Shown here piece by piece: positions 12,178-21,208 of a stretch of DNA of 64,000 nt. Numbering within the stretch: the first letter of the stretch is position 1; each line of letters opens with the position of its first letter. Source of the DNA: Escherichia phage 132; the sequence record MZ417521; one strand, given 5' to 3'. Below the pieces are notes generated by a model. The model was not told where the DNA came from, did no database searches, and worked only from the letters and a program-made list of their open reading frames with translations. The position numbers and the translations under genes are program-made.

Positions 12178-12437
12178 TTAAAGTATTCCCGCAATTGGTC
12201 AAATCCACCAATATGACTTCCATCAGGAGCAAATACTTGTGGCATCGTCAAACCAATTTGAGTATCACGACCTAGTTTAGTCAGAAGCTCAGCGATTTTC
12301 TCATCATCAAAAACACCTTTTTCCGGCATAATGTTGATAAATTCAAACGGCTGTTTCTTCACGGTCAAAAGACGTTTTGCATTATCGCAATACACACATT
12401 TGTGGATGTTGCTATCATAACCATATACTTTAAACAT
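12174..12437 (-). CDS. nrdC: Thioredoxin/glutaredoxin (NrdC)
   Basis: 87 aa, CVYC redox motif; begins MFKVYGYDSNIHKCVYCDNAKRLL. Confidence 0.8.
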   Translation of the reverse strand: MFKVYGYDSNIHKCVYCDNAKRLLTVKKQPFEFINIMPEKGVFDDEKIAELLTKLGRDTQIGLTMPQVFAPDGSHIGGFDQLREYFK

Positions 12438-12438
12438 A

Positions 12439-12681
12439 TTATTCCTTAATTCCTAGTACTTGTTTAAAAATCTCGTCATAATCAAGACTTTGGCCCGTTT
12501 GTTCTTTATGTTTGTATATAATATCACTTACTTCTGATAGCATATTTTTATATGAACGAGTTAAAGCAGATTTAAGAACGCTATATCTATCAGGAAATTT
12601 ACCGTGTTCATTATAATAAGCTATTGCTAATTCACGGACTGCTTTTTCAGCAATCTCCATATATTCTTTACGCTTGGTCAT
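12439..12681 (-). CDS. Hypothetical 80-aa protein
   Basis: First ATG of ORF 12439..12729 (the track start is TTG); overlaps the upstream gene stop by 14 nt. Confidence 0.45.
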
Positions 12682-12985
12682 TTTCTTCTCTCTCAAATCG
12701 GTGTTTGCAATGACGACATTTATATTCAAGCTCTGGTTTACGCCAGTTAATCAATTGGACCTGTTCAGTACCACATTTTGGGCAGTTCGGAACATTCTTA
12801 GAAGCCCTTTCGCGGCGTTCAACCATAACCATAATGGCATCCCAAGCAGGAGGTTTAAAGTCTAGATCGTCACAGCCATGAATCTTTCCACGCATTTCTA
12901 AATCGTCTTCTTCACCAGCCATAATAATTTTAATTAGACTGGAATTACTTGAAGCTGCAATATCTTCTAATAAGCGCTTTTTCAT
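12668..12985 (-). CDS. Zn-ribbon protein
   Basis: 105 aa with CPKC...CRHC four-Cys motif. Confidence 0.5.
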
Positions 12986-13911
12986 TTCAATACCTCAATA
13001 GCATTACGTAAACCATTTGCTTTGGCGGTTAAAGCCTTAAGAACTTTAGTATGCTCTTCAATCTGTTTTTCAACTTCAATTAAGCGTGTATTAAGATATT
13101 CGCGTTCTTCACTCAGGTTATCAATCTTTTCTACTTTAGGTTCTTTTACAACTGGCTTATATGTATTAGGATTCTTCAGTTTAATTAGAATGCGTGAACT
13201 GTATAACATTGAACCATTATCTTCGGTTTCGTCATACATTTCTACTACGTCCATAATTTTTAACATCATGCGGAGTTTATAAGACAACGAACGAATAGTT
13301 TTGTTGTGCTTATTAATTTCTCTAGCGTTCATGGTGCCGAGATTACGTGAGTAATAATAAGGAACCTGGATATTAATTAATACTGATGAACCACCTGGCT
13401 TGTGTGTTACTTCATCAGCAATAACCCAGTCCTTAACATGAACTGTATTTGTACGGTCATCGCCCGCAGTAAATAGTTTACGAGCATGCTTAAAAAGCAT
13501 ATTCACTTGGTCATTGAATTGACAAGCGAATTTATCAGCAAATTTAGTTTCAGGAATGGTAGATAACCAATCAGCCAAATGGGTCTTTTTAACATCGTTA
13601 ACAATAGTAAATTCAACCAAATCGGTTATAGATGTCGCAGATTTAATGAAGCTCGGCTTCATAAAGTTTTTAATGTTATCGCGAGCTACGGTAGAAGATA
13701 ACATACGAGAACGTTTAAACCATTCAAGCAAATTGCCTAACGAATGAGAATAAGCGTTTTGAGTATCTTTACAGATATGATTTTCCTGGCCAACATATTG
13801 AAGGAAATCACGAAGAATATTATTGATTACTGCTCTGTGCCCGATTTGATAATTACGGTGTTTAGTAATAAGACTGTCAAAATAATCAATATAATGTTTA
13901 CGAGTTTTCAT
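12982..13911 (-). CDS. Coiled-coil protein, paralog 1 of a four-gene family
   Basis: 309 aa; N-terminus MKTRKHYIDYFDSLI resembles the next paralog; C-terminal ~50-aa heptad-like region. Confidence 0.6.
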   Translation of the reverse strand: MKTRKHYIDYFDSLITKHRNYQIGHRAVINNILRDFLQYVGQENHICKDTQNAYSHSLGNLLEWFKRSRMLSSTVARDNIKNFMKPSFIKSATSITDLVEFTIVNDVKKTHLADWLSTIPETKFADKFACQFNDQVNMLFKHARKLFTAGDDRTNTVHVKDWVIADEVTHKPGGSSVLINIQVPYYYSRNLGTMNAREINKHNKTIRSLSYKLRMMLKIMDVVEMYDETEDNGSMLYSSRILIKLKNPNTYKPVVKEPKVEKIDNLSEEREYLNTRLIEVEKQIEEHTKVLKALTAKANGLRNAIEVLK

Positions 13912-13963
13912 GTTCTTCTCACTTAGTTAATGATTTATACTCCGAGCCATCCTTGGCTTTAAA

Positions 13964-14965
13964 TTACTTAATTAACTGTAAAGCTTGTTCAAGACGATCC
14001 AGGCGATTAACAGATTCTTCCCAAATCCTTTTAGCCTGTTCATATTCTTTCTGCGCTTTATTAGAAATTTCTAGAGCTTCTTTATAAGCTTTTTCTAATG
14101 CAATAACTTCTGGACGAATTTCTACCGATTCAGGTGAATCATCAAGATTATCCATTAATTCCTCAAGGGTAGTTTCTTCTTTAGGAGTATTCACAATTTC
14201 TTCGCATTTTTGTTGGTAAATTTCTTTATCAGTTAGTGAATAAGCACACTTTACTTCACGAAGACTAACTACAATTTTGTATCCTTCCCAACCGCACACA
14301 TTCTTAAAAGGATAAGTATGAATATTTTCTACTGTTTCCATACAAAGTAGTGCAGTCTCTAATTGACGAGTTATATCACTAGCAATTGAGAAAAATTTAT
14401 TAATGTTCTTTTGATTAGCTTCTGGTGTAAAAAATCCATAATTCACAAAAATAGCTGCTTTATTTTTATCAAGTTCATATTCTTTTATGATAATCATATC
14501 AGAAGCCCAAGGATGAATTTGACGATAATCGCCATAGCATAATTTAGAAGCTGATTTTAGAATTTGCTTTTTGAAAAGTCTGAAATTACTAATCCAACGA
14601 CGAGTAAAAATATTCTCAGGGTCTTCTTTAATATTAAGATGATAAGAATTAACATCACCGAACCAATTATATCCTACTACATCTTTAGTTCGTTTAATTT
14701 CTTTCCCAAATTTACCAAGAATATCTTGATTAACTAAATATGAAAGAAGACGAGAACCTTTAAATGTTTCCTTAATGTCATCTTTATATTCGCGACTAGA
14801 AATTTTATGAACTTCATGGATAAATTTGCTGGAAGAAACAATGCTTACATCAATATTATTGAGCCATTGATTGATAATGGAAATCACGCTATTCTGACTA
14901 GACACAGGTTTAACTTTATCATCAATAACGCTGTTGAATGATTTGATATATTCATTACGAGTCAT
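13964..14965 (-). CDS. Coiled-coil protein, paralog 2
   Basis: 333 aa; N-terminus MTRNEYIKSFNSVI; central motif WISNFRLFKKQILKSASKL; C-terminal coiled coil; own early promoter. Confidence 0.6.
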   Translation of the reverse strand: MTRNEYIKSFNSVIDDKVKPVSSQNSVISIINQWLNNIDVSIVSSSKFIHEVHKISSREYKDDIKETFKGSRLLSYLVNQDILGKFGKEIKRTKDVVGYNWFGDVNSYHLNIKEDPENIFTRRWISNFRLFKKQILKSASKLCYGDYRQIHPWASDMIIIKEYELDKNKAAIFVNYGFFTPEANQKNINKFFSIASDITRQLETALLCMETVENIHTYPFKNVCGWEGYKIVVSLREVKCAYSLTDKEIYQQKCEEIVNTPKEETTLEELMDNLDDSPESVEIRPEVIALEKAYKEALEISNKAQKEYEQAKRIWEESVNRLDRLEQALQLIK

Positions 14966-14993
14966 ATTAATCTCCTCAGTAGAAAGTAAGAAT

Positions 14994-15023
14994 ATTATAC
15001 CACATCCCTGTGGTAAAGTAAAC
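14994..15023 (-). promoter_or_regulatory. Early sigma70-type promoter
   Basis: Minus strand GTTTAC-N18-TGG-TATAAT; upstream of coiled-coil paralog 2. Confidence 0.65.
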
Positions 15024-16051
15024 TAGTTCAGTGCATTTAGTGCATTGTTCAGTTTAGAACGTTGCTTCGTGAGATTTTTGACTTTTTCTTGAGCTTTTTC
15101 TAGTGCCTTTTCAACTTCTAACATTTCATTAGTTGCTTTAACGAGTTCATCATCTACTGCTTTAAGAGACTTCTCAATCGCATCTGCATGCCATTTTTCA
15201 ACAGGTTTAAGACTCGGATTTTCAATAGGAAGAAAATTCACTTTATTGAATTTCCATGCATCCTTATTACCTGAACTATACATCCAAAATTTAGGATCGT
15301 TTGATGAGTAATTGGATAAATTTAAATTTAAGTTATCTTGCACTTCTTGCTTTTTCTCTTGCGTGACTTCGTCCTTTCTCAAAAAATCGTATTTAAATGA
15401 AACGATCATATCAAGTTCATACGTTGTTGTATGTTCCCAATTTCGCTCAAAATGAGGTAAAATCTTAGACTGAACAGCGGCAACAACATCCATATACTTA
15501 AATGCTTCTGTTAACTGCGATTTAAGGCATTCGCAAATTGAAAGAGAATTTTTTGTATTAGGTTTAAAGCTAATTCGTGCAGTTCTATTATTTTCTTTTA
15601 ATGGTCTTACTTCCATCTGAAGAGTATAACCATCAAATTTCAGATTCTTTAAGTTAATATCAGAACCTTTTAATCGACTCGCAGTTGATAAAATTTGCTT
15701 TAATTGTCTACGGAACAGAGCAATAAATCTCCATTCAATACGATAATGATTTGGATTGAAAAATCCAGATGATAAATCGACCTTACTTTGACCAACGCCT
15801 TGAACAAATAGAGGATTTTTATAATCAATAGTTTTACAGAAATCGGTAAGCTGCTCACGAGCCGTCATTTGTGTAATATACCCTGCTTCGCTAAAATTAC
15901 GCACCCATTCGCTGCTGTTCAGATGCTTAAAGGCATGAATGGAACAATTAACTTTATCAGGGTCTAAATTATTTTGGCACAAAAATGTCATAACGTCACG
16001 AGTATAGCTGGCATTACGAACCATATCTTCAATTTGAGAACGAGTTTTCAT
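15023..16051 (-). CDS. Coiled-coil protein, paralog 3
   Basis: 342 aa; central motif EWRFIALFRRQLKQILSTASRL; C-terminal coiled coil. Confidence 0.6.
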   Translation of the reverse strand: MKTRSQIEDMVRNASYTRDVMTFLCQNNLDPDKVNCSIHAFKHLNSSEWVRNFSEAGYITQMTAREQLTDFCKTIDYKNPLFVQGVGQSKVDLSSGFFNPNHYRIEWRFIALFRRQLKQILSTASRLKGSDINLKNLKFDGYTLQMEVRPLKENNRTARISFKPNTKNSLSICECLKSQLTEAFKYMDVVAAVQSKILPHFERNWEHTTTYELDMIVSFKYDFLRKDEVTQEKKQEVQDNLNLNLSNYSSNDPKFWMYSSGNKDAWKFNKVNFLPIENPSLKPVEKWHADAIEKSLKAVDDELVKATNEMLEVEKALEKAQEKVKNLTKQRSKLNNALNALN

Positions 16052-16059
16052 GGTGTTCC

Positions 16060-16950
16060 TTAAGATTTAAGTAAATCAACAATTTTAATCAGCTTTTCAC
16101 GCTCAGATTTAGCTTTACTACTCAATCCAGATAGTCTGAAAATTTCATCGTCATATTGTTGAATAGAAATATTCAGCTCTTCAATCTGCTTATTAAAATA
16201 ATCAATTTGTTCAGAATGTTTTTCGTTACTACGAACTGGTACAGGTTTTGTAGGCAATTTGGTTGAACTGGATTCATCCGGGCGATAAATTAAAATACAA
16301 CTTGAACCAATAGGGCATTTTGCACCAGATGAATATTCTAATGTTCCAGCTTCTTTTAAAACTTCAAAAGCTAAACAGAGATGATGTCCCATATTAACAT
16401 AATCTGTAGAGCGAGCTCTGATGTAATAATCATCTCTGCGAATACTAAATTTAAAGCATTTAAGGTCTTCTGTATTATTGGTCTTAAAAATCATTTGTTT
16501 ATCTAGACCTTTAGCTAATCGAGCGCCTAATGCTAATAATCGTCGTTGATTTTCCCACAAATCCGCAATCATTTGATCGAATGATAATTTCGGCATTAGT
16601 CGACCATAAAGGTCATATCCTTTATTATAATTACGAAGAATTTCACTCGCATTAATACGAGACAACGCTCCAATTTTATTAAGGGCTTTCATAATGCGAT
16701 TAGATAAACTCATTCCAGACCCATTTGTTCGCTGTAGATGTTTTTCTAATCCAAACCCAATATCAACTTTAAATTTATCTAAAATTTCGGCATGAACATC
16801 TCTGTCAATAACATTCAAATCCAAAGTTGGGTTAAATTTATGAAAAAATTTATCTGGCTCTCCACGACGAAATACAGTCCATTCATTCATCATTTTTTTA
16901 TTAACTAAAGATTTAATTACTGCATTGACATTATTAATTACTACTGACAT
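16060..16950 (-). CDS. Coiled-coil protein, paralog 4 (more divergent)
   Basis: Start taken at internal ATG (MSVVINNV...) with GAGGAAAAT SD, 296 aa; central motif LWENQRRLLALGARLAKGL; C-terminal coiled coil. Confidence 0.55.
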   Translation of the reverse strand: MSVVINNVNAVIKSLVNKKMMNEWTVFRRGEPDKFFHKFNPTLDLNVIDRDVHAEILDKFKVDIGFGLEKHLQRTNGSGMSLSNRIMKALNKIGALSRINASEILRNYNKGYDLYGRLMPKLSFDQMIADLWENQRRLLALGARLAKGLDKQMIFKTNNTEDLKCFKFSIRRDDYYIRARSTDYVNMGHHLCLAFEVLKEAGTLEYSSGAKCPIGSSCILIYRPDESSSTKLPTKPVPVRSNEKHSEQIDYFNKQIEELNISIQQYDDEIFRLSGLSSKAKSEREKLIKIVDLLKS

Positions 16951-16957
16951 ATTTTCC

Positions 16958-17365
16958 TCACTCAATTTCAATTTTACTAAATACACAGAATATGATTGAA
17001 CAGACTACATAAGCGCCACACACGGATTGAACTAATACCATCCCAAAGAACCAAACAATATTATCAAACAATGTCTGTTTTACGTCGAAAGGACGTAAAC
17101 TTACAGTAATATTATCACCTTTTTCTATTGAAGAATACATCTCTGGGGAAATATATTCACTAAATCTATAACCATCTTTGAGTTCATATACGGCAATAAA
17201 CGATAAACTAGACCCTTTTCCTTGTGTTCCTGTAATGGTATTAACTACAGTAACATCATAATCTTTATAATGCATATAATCATTAATTGCGTAATAACCA
17301 TATGCAATTACTACACATAAACAACATATCAATAAATTCAATCTTTTAATTATCAACTGTTTCAT
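16958..17365 (-). CDS. Membrane protein (N- and C-terminal TM helices)
   Basis: 135 aa; hydrophobic segments LLICCLCVVIAYGYYAI and VWFFGMVLVQSVCGAYVVCSIIFCVF. Confidence 0.55.
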   Translation of the reverse strand: MKQLIIKRLNLLICCLCVVIAYGYYAINDYMHYKDYDVTVVNTITGTQGKGSSLSFIAVYELKDGYRFSEYISPEMYSSIEKGDNITVSLRPFDVKQTLFDNIVWFFGMVLVQSVCGAYVVCSIIFCVFSKIEIE

Positions 17366-17420
17366 AATAATCTCAATTAAAAGGGCTTAGAACCATTATA
17401 CCATCCTTGGTATAAAGCGG

Positions 17421-17948
17421 TTATGCGAGTACCGTCTTTAACCGTTCTTCAAACTTCCGAAGAGTATTTTGGCGTTCAGCTCTTTGCTTTTTGTAAGTTT
17501 CAATACGCTCTGAAATGAGAGTGTATCGTTCATTTACTGATTCTTTCATAAAATCAGGAATTTCACGAGAAGCTTTAATCTCGTCAAATTTATCAATAAC
17601 AGCTTGCTCTTCAGCAATTAAGTTATCATACATTAAAATATCTTTCTTGATAAACTCAATATCTTCTTGAGTTACACGAGATAATTTAGATGCTTTATCC
17701 TTTTTGTACTGTTCGTTAGTATCACGAGACCAGTGTAATGTACGATTTTTATTCGTATTTTTGTAAATTTCTACAATACCAATCTCATCAATAATAACGA
17801 TCCAATTCCAACGGGATTTGTAAATTTGTCCTCCATCAACAGTGATTTCACCTCCGATTGAGATGTCATTAAAGAACTTGCTTTGCGCTTCAGATTTAAA
17901 TTTACCATCGTTGTAATTTACTAAGTTGAAAATATCTTTAGCGTTCAT
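17421..17948 (-). CDS. Hypothetical 175-aa protein with C-terminal coiled coil
   Basis: ORF track; early promoter immediately upstream. Confidence 0.55.
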   Translation of the reverse strand: MNAKDIFNLVNYNDGKFKSEAQSKFFNDISIGGEITVDGGQIYKSRWNWIVIIDEIGIVEIYKNTNKNRTLHWSRDTNEQYKKDKASKLSRVTQEDIEFIKKDILMYDNLIAEEQAVIDKFDEIKASREIPDFMKESVNERYTLISERIETYKKQRAERQNTLRKFEERLKTVLA

Positions 17949-17976
17949 TTTCTGTTCCTCCGTAGTTGATAGTTGT

Positions 17977-18006
17977 ATAGTACCACAGAGGAACAGTCTT
18001 GTAAAC
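17977..18006 (-). promoter_or_regulatory. Early sigma70-type promoter
   Basis: Minus strand GTTTAC-N18-TGG-TACTAT; upstream of ORF 17421..17948. Confidence 0.6.
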
Positions 18007-18008
18007 CA

Positions 18009-18311
18009 CTAAAAGAAACTTCTTTCACAATTTTTTCCACTGAACCATGCGCTTACCGCTTTCTTAGTCTCAGGAGCAGTGTTATCCATAAACCATTCAA
18101 AGGCAGCCTTTTTATGATTCTGGAGGGCTTCTCGGGCTTTAATCTGCTCACGGTCTATTAACACTAACATATGAGCCTTTCTTGTCACCATGGGCTTCTT
18201 ATGATTTTTTGAATACTCCCAATCATTTGTCCATCGCATCGTTGTTGCGAACTGATGAACCGCGTCTTTAATTTTAGTTTCATAAATTTCACGAGCCTTT
18301 GAGTATAACAT
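18009..18311 (-). CDS. Hypothetical 100-aa basic protein
   Basis: ATG at 18311 with GGAGG SD; the ORF-track start is 4 codons upstream. Confidence 0.5.
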   Translation of the reverse strand: MLYSKAREIYETKIKDAVHQFATTMRWTNDWEYSKNHKKPMVTRKAHMLVLIDREQIKAREALQNHKKAAFEWFMDNTAPETKKAVSAWFSGKNCERSFF

Positions 18312-18354
18312 CATTACCTCCATTTACCAGTTTAATTCTAGTCATCTTTTTAAT

Positions 18355-18392
18355 GGCAGTCCATATAATCTATTTCTGAACTGCCTTTTTGT
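18355..18392 (+). terminator. Plus-strand-oriented intrinsic terminator inside the minus-strand early region
   Basis: GGCAGT ... ACTGCC stem (19-nt loop) followed by TTTTTGTCTT on the plus strand; no plus-strand gene upstream. Confidence 0.4.
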
Positions 18393-18393
18393 C

Positions 18394-19113
18394 TTAGGAT
18401 TCTTCTAAATGTCTTTTCTGAAAAGTTGATACCATACTACGATACGGTTCATTTGGATACCCGTGTTTTATAGCTTCCTTTGTAAATTTTCTCCATCCAT
18501 ATTTAGTTTCTTTCCAAAGCTCGAATAATTCATCTTCATATTGCCATATAGTTAAATGAGAACGCTTTGCAGCTTTAATTCCATTAATATGCTTTTCTTT
18601 TACTACAGGATTGCTTAGTTTCTTTTTAATAATATTACTAACTTTTCTAACAAAAACTGGGTCCTTATATCGTTGCGAAGTTTTTATTGAAGTGTTTAAT
18701 TTAGCTTCCGGCGTGGATGTGACCTCTTTCATCTTTTTCTTCATATGCTGTATATGATTAGGATTTTTCCATAAATTTATAGAATGCTTTTTGCATTTTA
18801 TCCTAGTTTCATCTGCAACCTTTCCTCCTTCACCCCCGTATGACAGGTTAACACAGTTTTTTCCATATTTCAATTTACCTGCCATGATATATAATATTTC
18901 AGCTTGTACCATTTTATCATAATTATCAAAAACTTCTAAAACCGTTTTTGATAATATGTGGTCATTTGACACTTTTACACGTTCTATATAATTTCCACTA
19001 CCAACATACGAATCATTGATGTTATTAGTTATATGTCGACCATAATAGTATTTCTTAATACCTGTCTTTAAATTTAATATTTCAGTTTTATAGATAGTAA
19101 AATATTTTTTCAT
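18394..19113 (-). CDS. Free-standing GIY-YIG homing endonuclease (seg-like)
   Basis: 239 aa; N-terminal GIY-YIG-like module (YFTIYK...YYYGRH...VGSG) and basic C-terminus; start overlaps the stop of the upstream ATPase gene. Confidence 0.7.
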   Translation of the reverse strand: MKKYFTIYKTEILNLKTGIKKYYYGRHITNNINDSYVGSGNYIERVKVSNDHILSKTVLEVFDNYDKMVQAEILYIMAGKLKYGKNCVNLSYGGEGGKVADETRIKCKKHSINLWKNPNHIQHMKKKMKEVTSTPEAKLNTSIKTSQRYKDPVFVRKVSNIIKKKLSNPVVKEKHINGIKAAKRSHLTIWQYEDELFELWKETKYGWRKFTKEAIKHGYPNEPYRSMVSTFQKRHLEES

Positions 19114-20078
19114 TTTAATAATACCGTTTCAGCAATTTCTTCCCAATGATTTTTGTCGGTCATAATGAAGTCAGCAAGATAAAGAGCAGTACGCAGTGAA
19201 ACATTGCGTAAACGATTAACATTGACTTTCATCCATGATAATGCTTTATAAGTTTCTTCATCAGAAAGACCGCGCTTTTGCATCATGTCAGTTGAAAGAA
19301 TAACATCTTCAACCCTGACCATAATTTCTTCATTAGTATGAACACCCAAATCTAAATAAACTGAGCGGGACACTAATGCTTGTAAATGTGGAGCAAGTTT
19401 AGTACCACGGTCTAATTCGCGGTCAATGTCAACGTTTGTGATAAAAACAATCGTTCCTTTAAATTCAAACTCACGGTCAATGCCTTTTTCTTCTAAGTAA
19501 GAAGATGCAGTGCTCCAGCAGACTTTACGGGTCTCTCCAGTGTCCAGAGCAGCTTTTAGAAGATTAAGAATGTCCATATCAGAGAAAACATCCACATCAT
19601 CAATCAAAAGGACAGAATTCTCTTCACGATTGTTCCAAAGCTGCTCATAAAGACCAATACCAGAGATTTTACCATTAATGCTTTTATATTCAATGTATCC
19701 ATTATCATTTGCTTTATTTAAAGCTTTATCTAAAGAATACGTTTTACCAATACCTGCTGCGCCAGAGATAATTAATGAACGAATATTTCCATTAATAATA
19801 CCATTCGTCATCATTCCCATAACATTAAATCTTTTATTAATGCGGGTTTTCATATCTTCATATGATTCTTTAACTTCTTCAACTTTTACACCATCATATG
19901 AAATATCTGATTTGTAAACCCAAACACCGCGACGTTTACCGTCAATTTCAACAAAAACTTTACCATCTCCTTGTGCATCTACCGGAGCATTATCTGGGAA
20001 CCATTCGCCTAAGAGCTCAAAAGTTCCAGAGATTTCTTTACCGAAGTAGATACCCTTATTGATAGTTACAGTTTTCAT
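19110..20078 (-). CDS. AAA+ family ATPase
   Basis: Start at internal ATG (MKTVTINKG...) with GGAGAA SD; Walker A GAAGIGKTYS and Walker B LLIDDVD; the ORF-track N-terminal extension is a read-through of the promoter/terminator sequence. Confidence 0.7.
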   Translation of the reverse strand: MKTVTINKGIYFGKEISGTFELLGEWFPDNAPVDAQGDGKVFVEIDGKRRGVWVYKSDISYDGVKVEEVKESYEDMKTRINKRFNVMGMMTNGIINGNIRSLIISGAAGIGKTYSLDKALNKANDNGYIEYKSINGKISGIGLYEQLWNNREENSVLLIDDVDVFSDMDILNLLKAALDTGETRKVCWSTASSYLEEKGIDREFEFKGTIVFITNVDIDRELDRGTKLAPHLQALVSRSVYLDLGVHTNEEIMVRVEDVILSTDMMQKRGLSDEETYKALSWMKVNVNRLRNVSLRTALYLADFIMTDKNHWEEIAETVLLK

Positions 20079-20112
20079 TTTATTCTCCAAATCTGTATCA
20101 GTTGATAGTTGT

Positions 20113-20142
20113 ATAGTACCATAAAGCTTTATGCTTGTAAAC
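20113..20142 (-). promoter_or_regulatory. Early sigma70-type promoter
   Basis: Minus strand GTTTAC-N18-TGG-TACTAT; upstream of the AAA+ ATPase gene, just after a terminator. Confidence 0.6.
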
Positions 20143-20164
20143 CGTTTTGTGAAAAAATTTCTGA

Positions 20165-20192
20165 AATAAAAAAAGGGAGCCCGAAGGCTCCC
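20165..20192 (-). terminator. Intrinsic terminator after the nucleotidyltransferase gene
   Basis: GGGAGCC-UUCG-GGCUCCC hairpin followed by UUUUUUUAUUU. Confidence 0.7.
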
Positions 20193-20194
20193 TA

Positions 20195-21208
20195 TCATTT
20201 ATAATAACTTCGGTGGTTTTCAAGATAAACCCTCTCAAGGAAGTCATCCCAGAAACCCATGTCTACTTTTTGCTGCATACCGTTCTTAGAAGCTTCAATG
20301 GATGCTGCTTCTACTTGATCGACCACATCTTCCAAAAACTCTTGAACAGTTTTAAATGGATGTTTACCCAACTTCACGTCGAGAATAAATGGAGCATCTT
20401 GGAGTGGATAAACCAAGTCGCCAGTTTTGTAAATTTCCAATAGTTGGAGTCCACCACGACAAGCATGACTCAAAGCTTTCCAGTCAATACCCTCATTCGC
20501 TTCAGCTTTACGAGCACGTTCGCCGTATTCAGCATCAAGTTTATTCAAAGACTGCTTAAGCTCAATAAGAGAAAGAGTTGTCTGATATTTACGACCCAAC
20601 ACAGTATAGAACGTTTGTGGGCCTGTTTTCTCATGATTGTGGAACACCCATTCACAGAACTCGTTTTCTGGAAGACGATGCTTAATATCTTCAACTTTAG
20701 TTCGACGCTGCTTAATGGAACCGTCTTCTTGGTAATCAACCCATTGCTCGGGGATTTGATTAACTACTTTCAATACATCACGTAATGCAGCCAAACGAGA
20801 ACCCTTGACACCGTATTTAGAAGCTTGCTTGCGGACATATCCTAAATATGATTTCATGTTAGTCGTATAAAAACGAGAACGGTTGTCTTGAATAAACTTC
20901 CACACATCAGGCAAATCAGATTTAACCACTAGTTCAGGTGGAGTGTGAAGCATATCTAATGCTACAGTTTCACCATCTGCTGCTAATTTAAAGAAATATT
21001 TAAGACTGTATAGTTCATGGTCAATATCATCTTTAGTGTTTTTAGATGATGTGTTGTTAGTATTTTTACTCATGTGCTCTTTAACATTTCCAATAAGAAT
21101 ATCGCGAGCAGGAGGAACAAAGATTTCTTTAAAATCTACATCAGATTCTGGAGTAGAAGTTCCATAAAGATGACTACCAAAATAGCTTTTCATTACTGTT
21201 TTCATCAT
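20195..21208 (-). CDS. Nucleotidyltransferase-fold protein (MNT-like N-terminus, helical C-terminus)
   Basis: 337 aa; GSHLYGTSTPESDVDF matches the GS...D.D signature of Pol-beta-type nucleotidyltransferases; C-terminal R-x5-H; followed by a strong terminator. Confidence 0.65.
   Translation of the reverse strand: MMKTVMKSYFGSHLYGTSTPESDVDFKEIFVPPARDILIGNVKEHMSKNTNNTSSKNTKDDIDHELYSLKYFFKLAADGETVALDMLHTPPELVVKSDLPDVWKFIQDNRSRFYTTNMKSYLGYVRKQASKYGVKGSRLAALRDVLKVVNQIPEQWVDYQEDGSIKQRRTKVEDIKHRLPENEFCEWVFHNHEKTGPQTFYTVLGRKYQTTLSLIELKQSLNKLDAEYGERARKAEANEGIDWKALSHACRGGLQLLEIYKTGDLVYPLQDAPFILDVKLGKHPFKTVQEFLEDVVDQVEAASIEASKNGMQQKVDMGFWDDFLERVYLENHRSYYK

Follow-up and report, generated by a model that had tools for sequence, protein, structure and literature searches.

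Escherichia phage 132 (sequence record MZ417521) is a T4-like phage of the genus Tequatrovirus, and a stretch of 64,000 nucleotides (nt) of its DNA, the window, is analysed here. Five adjacent open reading frames (ORFs) lie on the minus strand at 12982-17365. Comparison with the T4 genome (NC_000866) identifies them as nrdC.3, nrdC.4, nrdC.5, nrdC.6 and nrdC.7. The region from 12400 to 18400 shares 97% identity with Salmonella phage pSe_SNUABM_01 and more than 90% with about 500 records. Here we describe the genes nrdC.3 to nrdC.6 as an array of anciently diverged paralogs and weigh the case that they act against host defences.

The proteins of phage 132 are referred to as A (nrdC.3-type), B (nrdC.4-type), C (nrdC.5-type) and D (nrdC.6-type). 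A (12982-13911, 309 amino acids (aa)), B (13964-14965, 333 aa), C (15023-16051, 342 aa) and D (16060-16950, 296 aa) are encoded consecutively on the minus strand. This agrees with an original prediction made from the letters alone, which had called four consecutive genes of these lengths and had matched them by position to T4 nrdC.x ORFs. It also placed a 135-aa protein with two transmembrane segments immediately upstream, and this is nrdC.7 (16958-17365, minus strand; phrog_2547), which lies 7 nt upstream of D and has two hydrophobic segments. C is 92.5% identical to T4 nrdC.5 and holds the same place in the gene order of NC_000866, between nrdC.6 and nrdC.4. The longest ORF for D opens at a GTG at 16986. 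Because the orthologs and the phrog_2257 alignment begin at residue 13 of that frame (M13), D is taken as the 296-aa protein starting at the ATG at 16950. The same length is found in other Tequatroviruses and in the T4 annotation used in the 2025 transposon screen HIDEN-SEQ (891 nt). The nrdC.6 of the T4 record NC_000866 (10067-10894) is 275 aa long; its C-terminal end (...EELIFLFNNMMMKFSDYLD) is unrelated, and the end of the coiled coil is missing. This is probably a frameshift or a strain variant in the record.

Domain libraries hold these proteins as three separate families, PF26897/phrog_1435, PF23882/phrog_2351 and PF26899/phrog_2257. A and B match phrog_1435 (393 and 547 bits), and the PF26897 label is borne in precomputed annotation by proteins P0120 and P0058, which are 96-98% identical to A and B. 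C falls in phrog_2351 and matches the Pfam family DUF7235 (PF23882) at 415.2 bits, with residues 1-342 aligned to model positions 1-307. The gathering cut-off of that model is 30 bits, and A, B and D fall short of it. D matches phrog_2257 at 503 bits, and the PF26899 label is borne by P0156, which is 96.5% identical to D, and by D orthologs of 50% identity. Scans of Pfam, NCBIfam and PADLOC found no enzymatic or DNA-binding domain in A-D. The PADLOC-DB models of defence and anti-defence systems gave coiled-coil noise only (BrxC 14 bits, JetC 9 bits), and the NCBIfam matches stayed below threshold and are taken as noise (XerD N-terminal, 17.7 bits).

The original prediction described three features common to the four proteins, and each of them stands in part. 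A and B clearly show the N-terminal motif, M(K)TR..YI..F. C keeps MKTR alone and D, which begins MSVVINN, does not have the motif. The central motif is strict in B (W-ISNF-RLFKKQILKSASKL) and in C (W-RFIALFRRQLKQILSTASRL) and is degenerate in A (NMLFKHARKLFTAGD) and D (LWENQRRLLALGARLAKGLD), where it is much weaker than had been described. A better signature for the whole superfamily is [LIF][LIF]..[AG][ASR][KR]L..G.D. The third feature was a C-terminal coiled coil of about 50 residues. Heptad scores over the last 35-60 residues exceed those of shuffled sequences in A (p=0.005), C (p<0.005) and D (p=0.035). The heptad pattern of B is weak, yet AlphaFold2 models the tail of B as a single 48-residue helix (285-332). 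The tail of C is likewise modelled as one long helix (283-341), with a predicted local distance difference test score (pLDDT) of 54-89. The proteins most probably oligomerise through this helix of some 50 residues, as a coiled coil.

Pairwise alignment, which had been proposed as a check on the relationship, goes only part of the way. By BLASTP A and B match over 226 aa (E=1e-6), the only pair supported at this level; B-C is marginal, and D gives no match to A, B or C. Family alignments were compared with one another by profile-profile comparison (HHalign), the alignments being built from three protein-database searches and from the loci of Tequatro-, Dhaka- and Gapriverviruses. The last 60 residues were cut off to keep the coiled coil from producing matches of its own. 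The globular parts of A and B match at 98.5% (E=3e-15). B and C match at 83-86% (E=5e-6 to 9e-6) and are collinear over 145 columns. Reversed-profile controls for these comparisons gave E=0.05-0.7. The direct B-D and C-D comparisons are below significance (E=0.04 and 0.15).

The gap to D is filled by intermediate proteins. A joint-profile HMMER search of 1.84 billion representative sequences returned 31 proteins at E<=1e-3. Roughly ten of them are newly recognised, full-length members (285-365 aa), encoded by T4-like phages of Klebsiella or on metagenomic contigs some 170 kb long. Several of these bridge proteins score with two family hidden Markov models (HMMs). P0232 reaches 32 bits with B (globular part) and 29 bits with C, and P0240, P0241 and P0245 match the family HMMs of both D and C. 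The Pfam DUF7235 model also matches bridge proteins (48, 30, 23 and 22 bits). When the tails are removed, the bridge group E matches D at 95% (E=4e-8), B at 92% (E=6e-7) and C at 82% by HHalign. Further bridge groups give 95% for B-H and 87% for both C-F and C-I. Reversed-profile controls for the bridge-group comparisons gave E>=0.02. As a negative control, the neighbouring proteins nrdC.1, nrdC.2, nrdC.7, nrdC.8 and nrdC.9 reach at most 3.5 bits against all nine profiles. The product of nrdC.8 ends in a coiled-coil-like segment and was considered as a truncated family member; at no more than 2.3 bits it is ruled out.

The structure of B was predicted with AlphaFold2 from a 44-sequence alignment of A and B (pLDDT 84.4, predicted template modelling score 0.68). 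In the model, six helices form an N-terminal bundle (3-84), which is followed by an alpha/beta domain (88-235); a disordered linker of low confidence (about 261-283) then leads to the C-terminal helix (285-332). Each paralog probably consists of a soluble globular body, made up of a helical bundle and an alpha/beta domain, followed by a flexible linker and a C-terminal helix. Foldseek comparison of the B model with BFVD returned 16 matches at E<=1e-3, all of them uncharacterised proteins of T4-like phages. Most align at full length onto proteins of about 300 aa, with 10-16% identity. The matches include a NrdC.3-type protein (E=6e-8) and the NrdC.6 of phage JS10 (E=2.7e-5), both at probability 1.00. 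Others come from the Acinetobacter phages Acj61 (two, with consecutive accessions), Acj9 and fHyAci03, and from Pectobacterium phage PM2, Erwinia phage Cronus, Serratia phages PS2 and CBH8, Klebsiella phage P545, Enterobacter phage IME523 and Yersinia phage fHe-Yen9-01. The family and joint HMMs reach at most 16 bits on the relatives found by Foldseek in other genera. The fold thus appears to extend well past the proteins that sequence searches can reach, and such searches cannot set the full extent of the superfamily. The core helix is kept in these relatives, as in NRLIAQGARLCSGNDR of Yersinia gp94 against RRLLALGARLAKGLDK of D and KQILKSASKLCYGDYR of B. Some of them start with MTTR or MTR, and the terminal helix mostly closes in ...LK.

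D is placed in the superfamily because bridge group E links it to B and C and because the B model matches JS10 NrdC.6. We hold with high confidence that nrdC.3, nrdC.4, nrdC.5 and nrdC.6 are true, anciently diverged paralogs, with D very distant. D is the most diverged of the four. The alternative for D is that it is no true paralog and has converged with the others in size and in its coiled-coil tail, as the insignificant direct comparisons with B and C would allow. This is very improbable in view of the tail-free matches of group E to D, B and C, and of the structural match to JS10 NrdC.6. In addition, bridge proteins bear both the C-type motif HYAD and the D-type motif FRLS, and the tandem position is kept in four genera.

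The superfamily was found only in T4-like phages (Straboviridae), with one to four copies per genome. Tequatroviruses have four. Dhaka- and Gapriverviruses have three, corresponding to nrdC.6, an nrdC.5-like gene (25-30% identity) and nrdC.4 (45-52%). Mosigviruses have a different set of three, nrdC.6-like (33%), nrdC.5-like (25%) and nrdC.3-like. In one Klebsiella phage and one Yersinia phage, one or two members can be detected at about the same place. Array copy number and content differ among Tequatro-, Dhaka-, Gapriver-, Mosig- and Tegunaviruses and Klebsiella phages. Rearranged members also occur. P0056, from a 167-kb contig, is an in-frame fusion of an N-terminally truncated nrdC.5 with the C-terminal two-thirds of nrdC.3, and nrdC.4 is deleted. 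P0156, from Shigella phage Sf25, is an nrdC.6 of 378 aa in which a segment of about 80 residues is duplicated internally, in tandem.

Within the genus the genes of the array evolve faster than their neighbours. In seven Tequatrovirus genomes the ratio of nonsynonymous to synonymous substitution rates (dN/dS) is 0.29 for nrdC.3, 0.17 for nrdC.4, 0.18 for nrdC.5 and 0.10 for nrdC.6. The neighbours gp49, nrdC, nrdC.1, nrdC.8 and nrdC.9 have values of 0.01-0.06, so that the family lies 3-10 times higher. The nrdC.3 alleles are deeply diverged, and the phage 132 copy is 63% identical to that of T4 and 75% to the Mosigvirus copy. Variation of nrdC.5 within the genus falls in residues of about 20-60 and 180-280, and 60-180 is almost invariant. 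The view of the array as a diversifying family is borne out, in a loose sense, by the changing copy number, the diverged nrdC.3 alleles, the fusions and duplications and the raised dN/dS. The qualification is that all dN/dS values are well below 1.

nrdC.7, nrdC.6 and nrdC.5 are 7-8 nt apart, and the gaps before nrdC.4, nrdC.3 and nrdC.7 measure 52-60 nt. In each of the longer gaps, a hairpin precedes a strong -10 element. Before nrdC.4 (14994-15022, minus strand) a promoter-like site of the T4-early type is formed by the -35 element (G)TTTACT, a 17-nt spacer with a hairpin, and TG-TATAAT. Before nrdC.3 (13934-13963, minus strand) the corresponding elements are TTTAAA, an 18-nt spacer with a hairpin, and TATAAA. 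In the 55-nt gap before nrdC.7 there is an extended -10 promoter-like element, TGGTATAAT (17395-17403, minus strand). A region-wide scan for the sigma-70 consensus was at chance level (32 found, 31.5 expected), and for this reason the promoter calls are positional, resting on the short gaps and the T4-early-like sequence. Judged from this layout, nrdC.7, nrdC.6 and nrdC.5 are probably one unit co-transcribed from a putative early promoter, and the gaps fit early transcription by the host RNA polymerase. Srikant et al. also term nrdC.5 an early gene (PMC9391042). The hairpins are short and GC-containing (such as TACCACAGGGATGTGGTA, GCCAAGGATGGC and TACCAAGGATGGTA), and they stand in or just before the promoter spacer (13934-13963, 14994-15022 and 17395-17420). 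They run straight into the -10 element, a layout repeated before nrdC.3, nrdC.4 and nrdC.7. They may serve to terminate transcription of the preceding gene, to regulate expression or as hotspots of recombination.

The original prediction regarded the T4 nrdC.x ORFs as uncharacterised, which is outdated for nrdC.5. The product of this gene counteracts the sirtuin defence Dsr1 (Srikant et al. 2022, eLife, PMC9391042). In that study a T4 deletion clone plated on the strain ECOR17 only once dsr1 had been removed, and cloned dsr1(ECOR17) protected MG1655 against the deletion clone. T4 nrdC.5 supplied in trans restored infection by the deletion clone on MG1655 carrying dsr1(ECOR17). Dsr1 is activated by the major capsid protein via a TPR sensor, and its sensor domain is common to about 9,000 proteins (PMC12803255). 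No phage countermeasure specific to Dsr1 other than nrdC.5 has been reported, and the EVADES anti-defence catalogue has no entry for this gene. A literature search found no paper that links nrdC.5 with nrdC.3, nrdC.4 or nrdC.6, gives a mechanism for NrdC.5 or describes its spread across Straboviridae.

The neighbourhood has a similar character. The HIDEN-SEQ screen identified nrdC.1 as a Septu inhibitor. The region between pin and nrdC.6 therefore resembles an anti-defence island. The supplementary tables of the same screen list nrdC.3-nrdC.7 as non-essential in T4, with viable insertion mutants.

We consider it fairly probable that the array is a battery of four paralogous counter-defence proteins and that counter-defence is the main business of the family. 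nrdC.3, nrdC.4 and nrdC.6 would then be candidates for the same kind of role. The raised dN/dS, the diverged nrdC.3 alleles, the changing array content and the fusion and duplication variants speak for this reading, as a pattern of evolution like that of an arms race. The proteins may act as stoichiometric inhibitors, each using its head domain to bind a single immune protein of the host. This model is proposed because they have no enzymatic or nucleic-acid-binding signature and because they are early, dispensable, restricted to phages, variable in blocks and equipped with an oligomerising helix. The variable globular head, with its hot spots at about 20-60 and 180-280, would set target specificity. 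The coiled coil would provide avidity or multivalency, or would sterically block the assembly or activation of the target. For NrdC.5 the model would have the protein bind the SIR2 NADase Dsr1 ahead of late protein synthesis, so that the TPR sensor is not switched on by the major capsid protein. Such an action would resemble that of DSAD1 on DSR2. That NrdC.5 blocks the Dsr1 sensor by direct binding is a tentative suggestion drawn from this analogy.

Several points weigh against the counter-defence reading. A phenotype is known for only one of the four genes, nrdC.5. The experiment of Srikant et al. demonstrates sufficiency in trans and concerns a plating phenotype of the T4 protein, without a mechanism (PMC9391042). 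The target of NrdC.5 could be the trigger or nicotinamide adenine dinucleotide (NAD) metabolism instead of Dsr1. The fitness of nrdC.3-nrdC.7 mutants was not significantly changed (adjusted value 1.0) in the one HIDEN-SEQ comparison considered. The dN/dS of all four genes (0.10-0.29) is well below 1, and within the genus D is conserved like an ordinary gene. The AlphaFold2 model of C, for which only near-identical sequences of its own family could be used, has a pLDDT of 43, and the fold of C is taken from homology.

The strongest rival is that nrdC.5 alone is a counter-defence gene, through neofunctionalisation, and that the ancestral job of the family was early host takeover or housekeeping, such as scaffolding or regulating a complex by means of the coiled coil. 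That nrdC.5 alone has a phenotype, that nrdC.6 is well conserved within the genus, that the slot for array genes is kept across many genera and that the HIDEN-SEQ comparison just cited shows no significant fitness change are all in keeping with it. We nevertheless think this unlikely. According to the HIDEN-SEQ tables all four genes are dispensable on the laboratory host. The family was not found outside T4-like phages, its copy number changes freely, it evolves faster than the flanking genes, and counter-defence genes are enriched nearby.

Two further proposals turn on the recognition of phage structural proteins by the host, and we regard both as improbable. According to one, the proteins are decoys. 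Early coiled-coil oligomers with a fold resembling the alpha/beta fold of tail terminators might occupy the fold-recognising TPR-type sensors of pattern-recognition immune proteins in bacteria without activating them, each paralog being tuned to one clade of sensors. The targets would be Dsr1 and relatives with the Avs7-type sensor, and possibly other Avs families. If this were true, the array would be a "decoy battery" against structure-based immune recognition. According to the other, NrdC.5 and its relatives bind the triggers of the phage itself, such as monomers of the capsid protein, and hide them from the sensors. The activation of Dsr1 by the major capsid protein and the nearly invariant core of nrdC.5 (60-180) are in favour of this shielding, and oligomeric coiled-coil proteins could serve as chaperone-like shields. 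The promoters are of the early type, yet the capsid protein is made late. Moreover, the structural proteins of T4 are highly conserved, and a protein that binds them should have no need of four diverged paralogs, of swapped alleles or of variable surface blocks.

We give almost no credence to the last rival, that the four are virion, tail or assembly proteins akin to tail terminators: the genes are non-essential and lie behind early-type promoters in the early nrdC-mobD region, away from the late structural module, the helical bundle and coiled-coil tail are foreign to terminators, and neither Foldseek nor profile searches against the Protein Data Bank (PDB) gave a confident match to a structural-protein family. 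Foldseek of the B model against the PDB had no significant match, with lambda gpU at ranks 20, 36 and 43 (probability <=0.35), and the best profile hit to PDB sequences was a keratin coiled coil at E=0.07. The resemblance to the tail terminator fold (lambda gpU, T5 p142, SPP1 gp17-like) is thus at most one of fold and is not significant.

The counter-defence reading can be compared with known systems. C is the ortholog of T4 NrdC.5 (about 92% identity, same position, DUF7235; PMC9391042), and A, B and D are paralogs of that protein. The anti-Dsr1 phenotype is a plating phenotype of the T4 protein. DSAD1, from a phage of the SPbeta group, is a functional analogue in that it blocks a SIR2 NADase, DSR2, with a sensor for a late structural protein. 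DSAD1 belongs to another phage group and acts on another target, and no relation to the family in sequence or fold was detected. The sensor of DSR2 responds to the tail tube and that of Dsr1 to the capsid protein. DSAD1 is known to bind its target directly, whereas for NrdC.5 such binding is proposed by analogy. The T4 anti-toxin-antitoxin island dmd-tifA-adfA and the Septu inhibitor nrdC.1 are likewise clustered, small, early and dispensable genes, each directed against a host defence. However, that island consists of unrelated inhibitors, whereas nrdC.3-nrdC.6 are paralogs of one another.

These are known T4 ORFs, one of them with a published phenotype, and the array is therefore not a new kind of system. 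Each of A-D is a clear member of one family of the libraries (PF26897, PF23882 and PF26899, or PHROGs 1435, 2351 and 2257); the libraries list these three as unrelated and of unknown function. The present analysis joins them through chains of profile-profile matches and through structure. Their union into one tandemly expanding superfamily across Straboviridae, anchored in an anti-Dsr1 activity, appears to be undescribed so far. We suggest that the three DUF families be merged into one clan. nrdC.3, nrdC.4 and nrdC.6, together with the relatives in Klebsiella, Yersinia, Acinetobacter and other phages considered for therapy, become candidate inhibitors of other defences. The variable head blocks, the invariant core helix motif and the coiled-coil tail provide a domain map for experiments, and the naturally truncated nrdC.6 of the T4 reference is a ready-made variant.

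The original prediction had listed the membrane protein along with the paralog array, and membership of this protein in the family is not supported. nrdC.7, whose hydrophobic segments lie by hydropathy at about 3-27 and 104-132, reaches no more than 0 bits against the family profiles. It is not present in the arrays of Dhaka- and Gapriverviruses, and in Mosigvirus it adjoins nrdC. Because its phylogenetic distribution and position differ from those of the family, nrdC.7 is a neighbour, neither a member of the family nor a partner conserved with it.

On the downstream side, nrdC.1 (12439-12681) lies two genes away from the array and is 97.5% identical to T4 nrdC.1. nrdC.2 (12668-12985) encodes a small protein that, according to weak Pfam matches, has a zinc ribbon at its C-terminus. 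It varies as much as nrdC.3 within the genus (identity down to 62%, dN/dS 0.20), and nrdC.2 and nrdC.3 may be exchanged together between lineages as a cassette. On the other side, an ORF of 239 aa (18394-19113, minus strand) lies between nrdC.9 and an nrdC.10-like ATPase gene, at a position that is empty in T4. It is annotated in related records as an "intron-like" or homing DNA endonuclease and has no Pfam match at E<=0.01. The longest ORF of nrdC.10 (19110-20198) has an N-terminal extension that adjoins the 239-aa ORF. Matches of the nrdC.10-like gene itself (19113-20078, minus strand) to the Pfam models of AAA and STAND-type NTPases stay below threshold (21-22 bits). The gene is conserved in over 1300 phage records, jumbo phages among them, at 33-100% identity.

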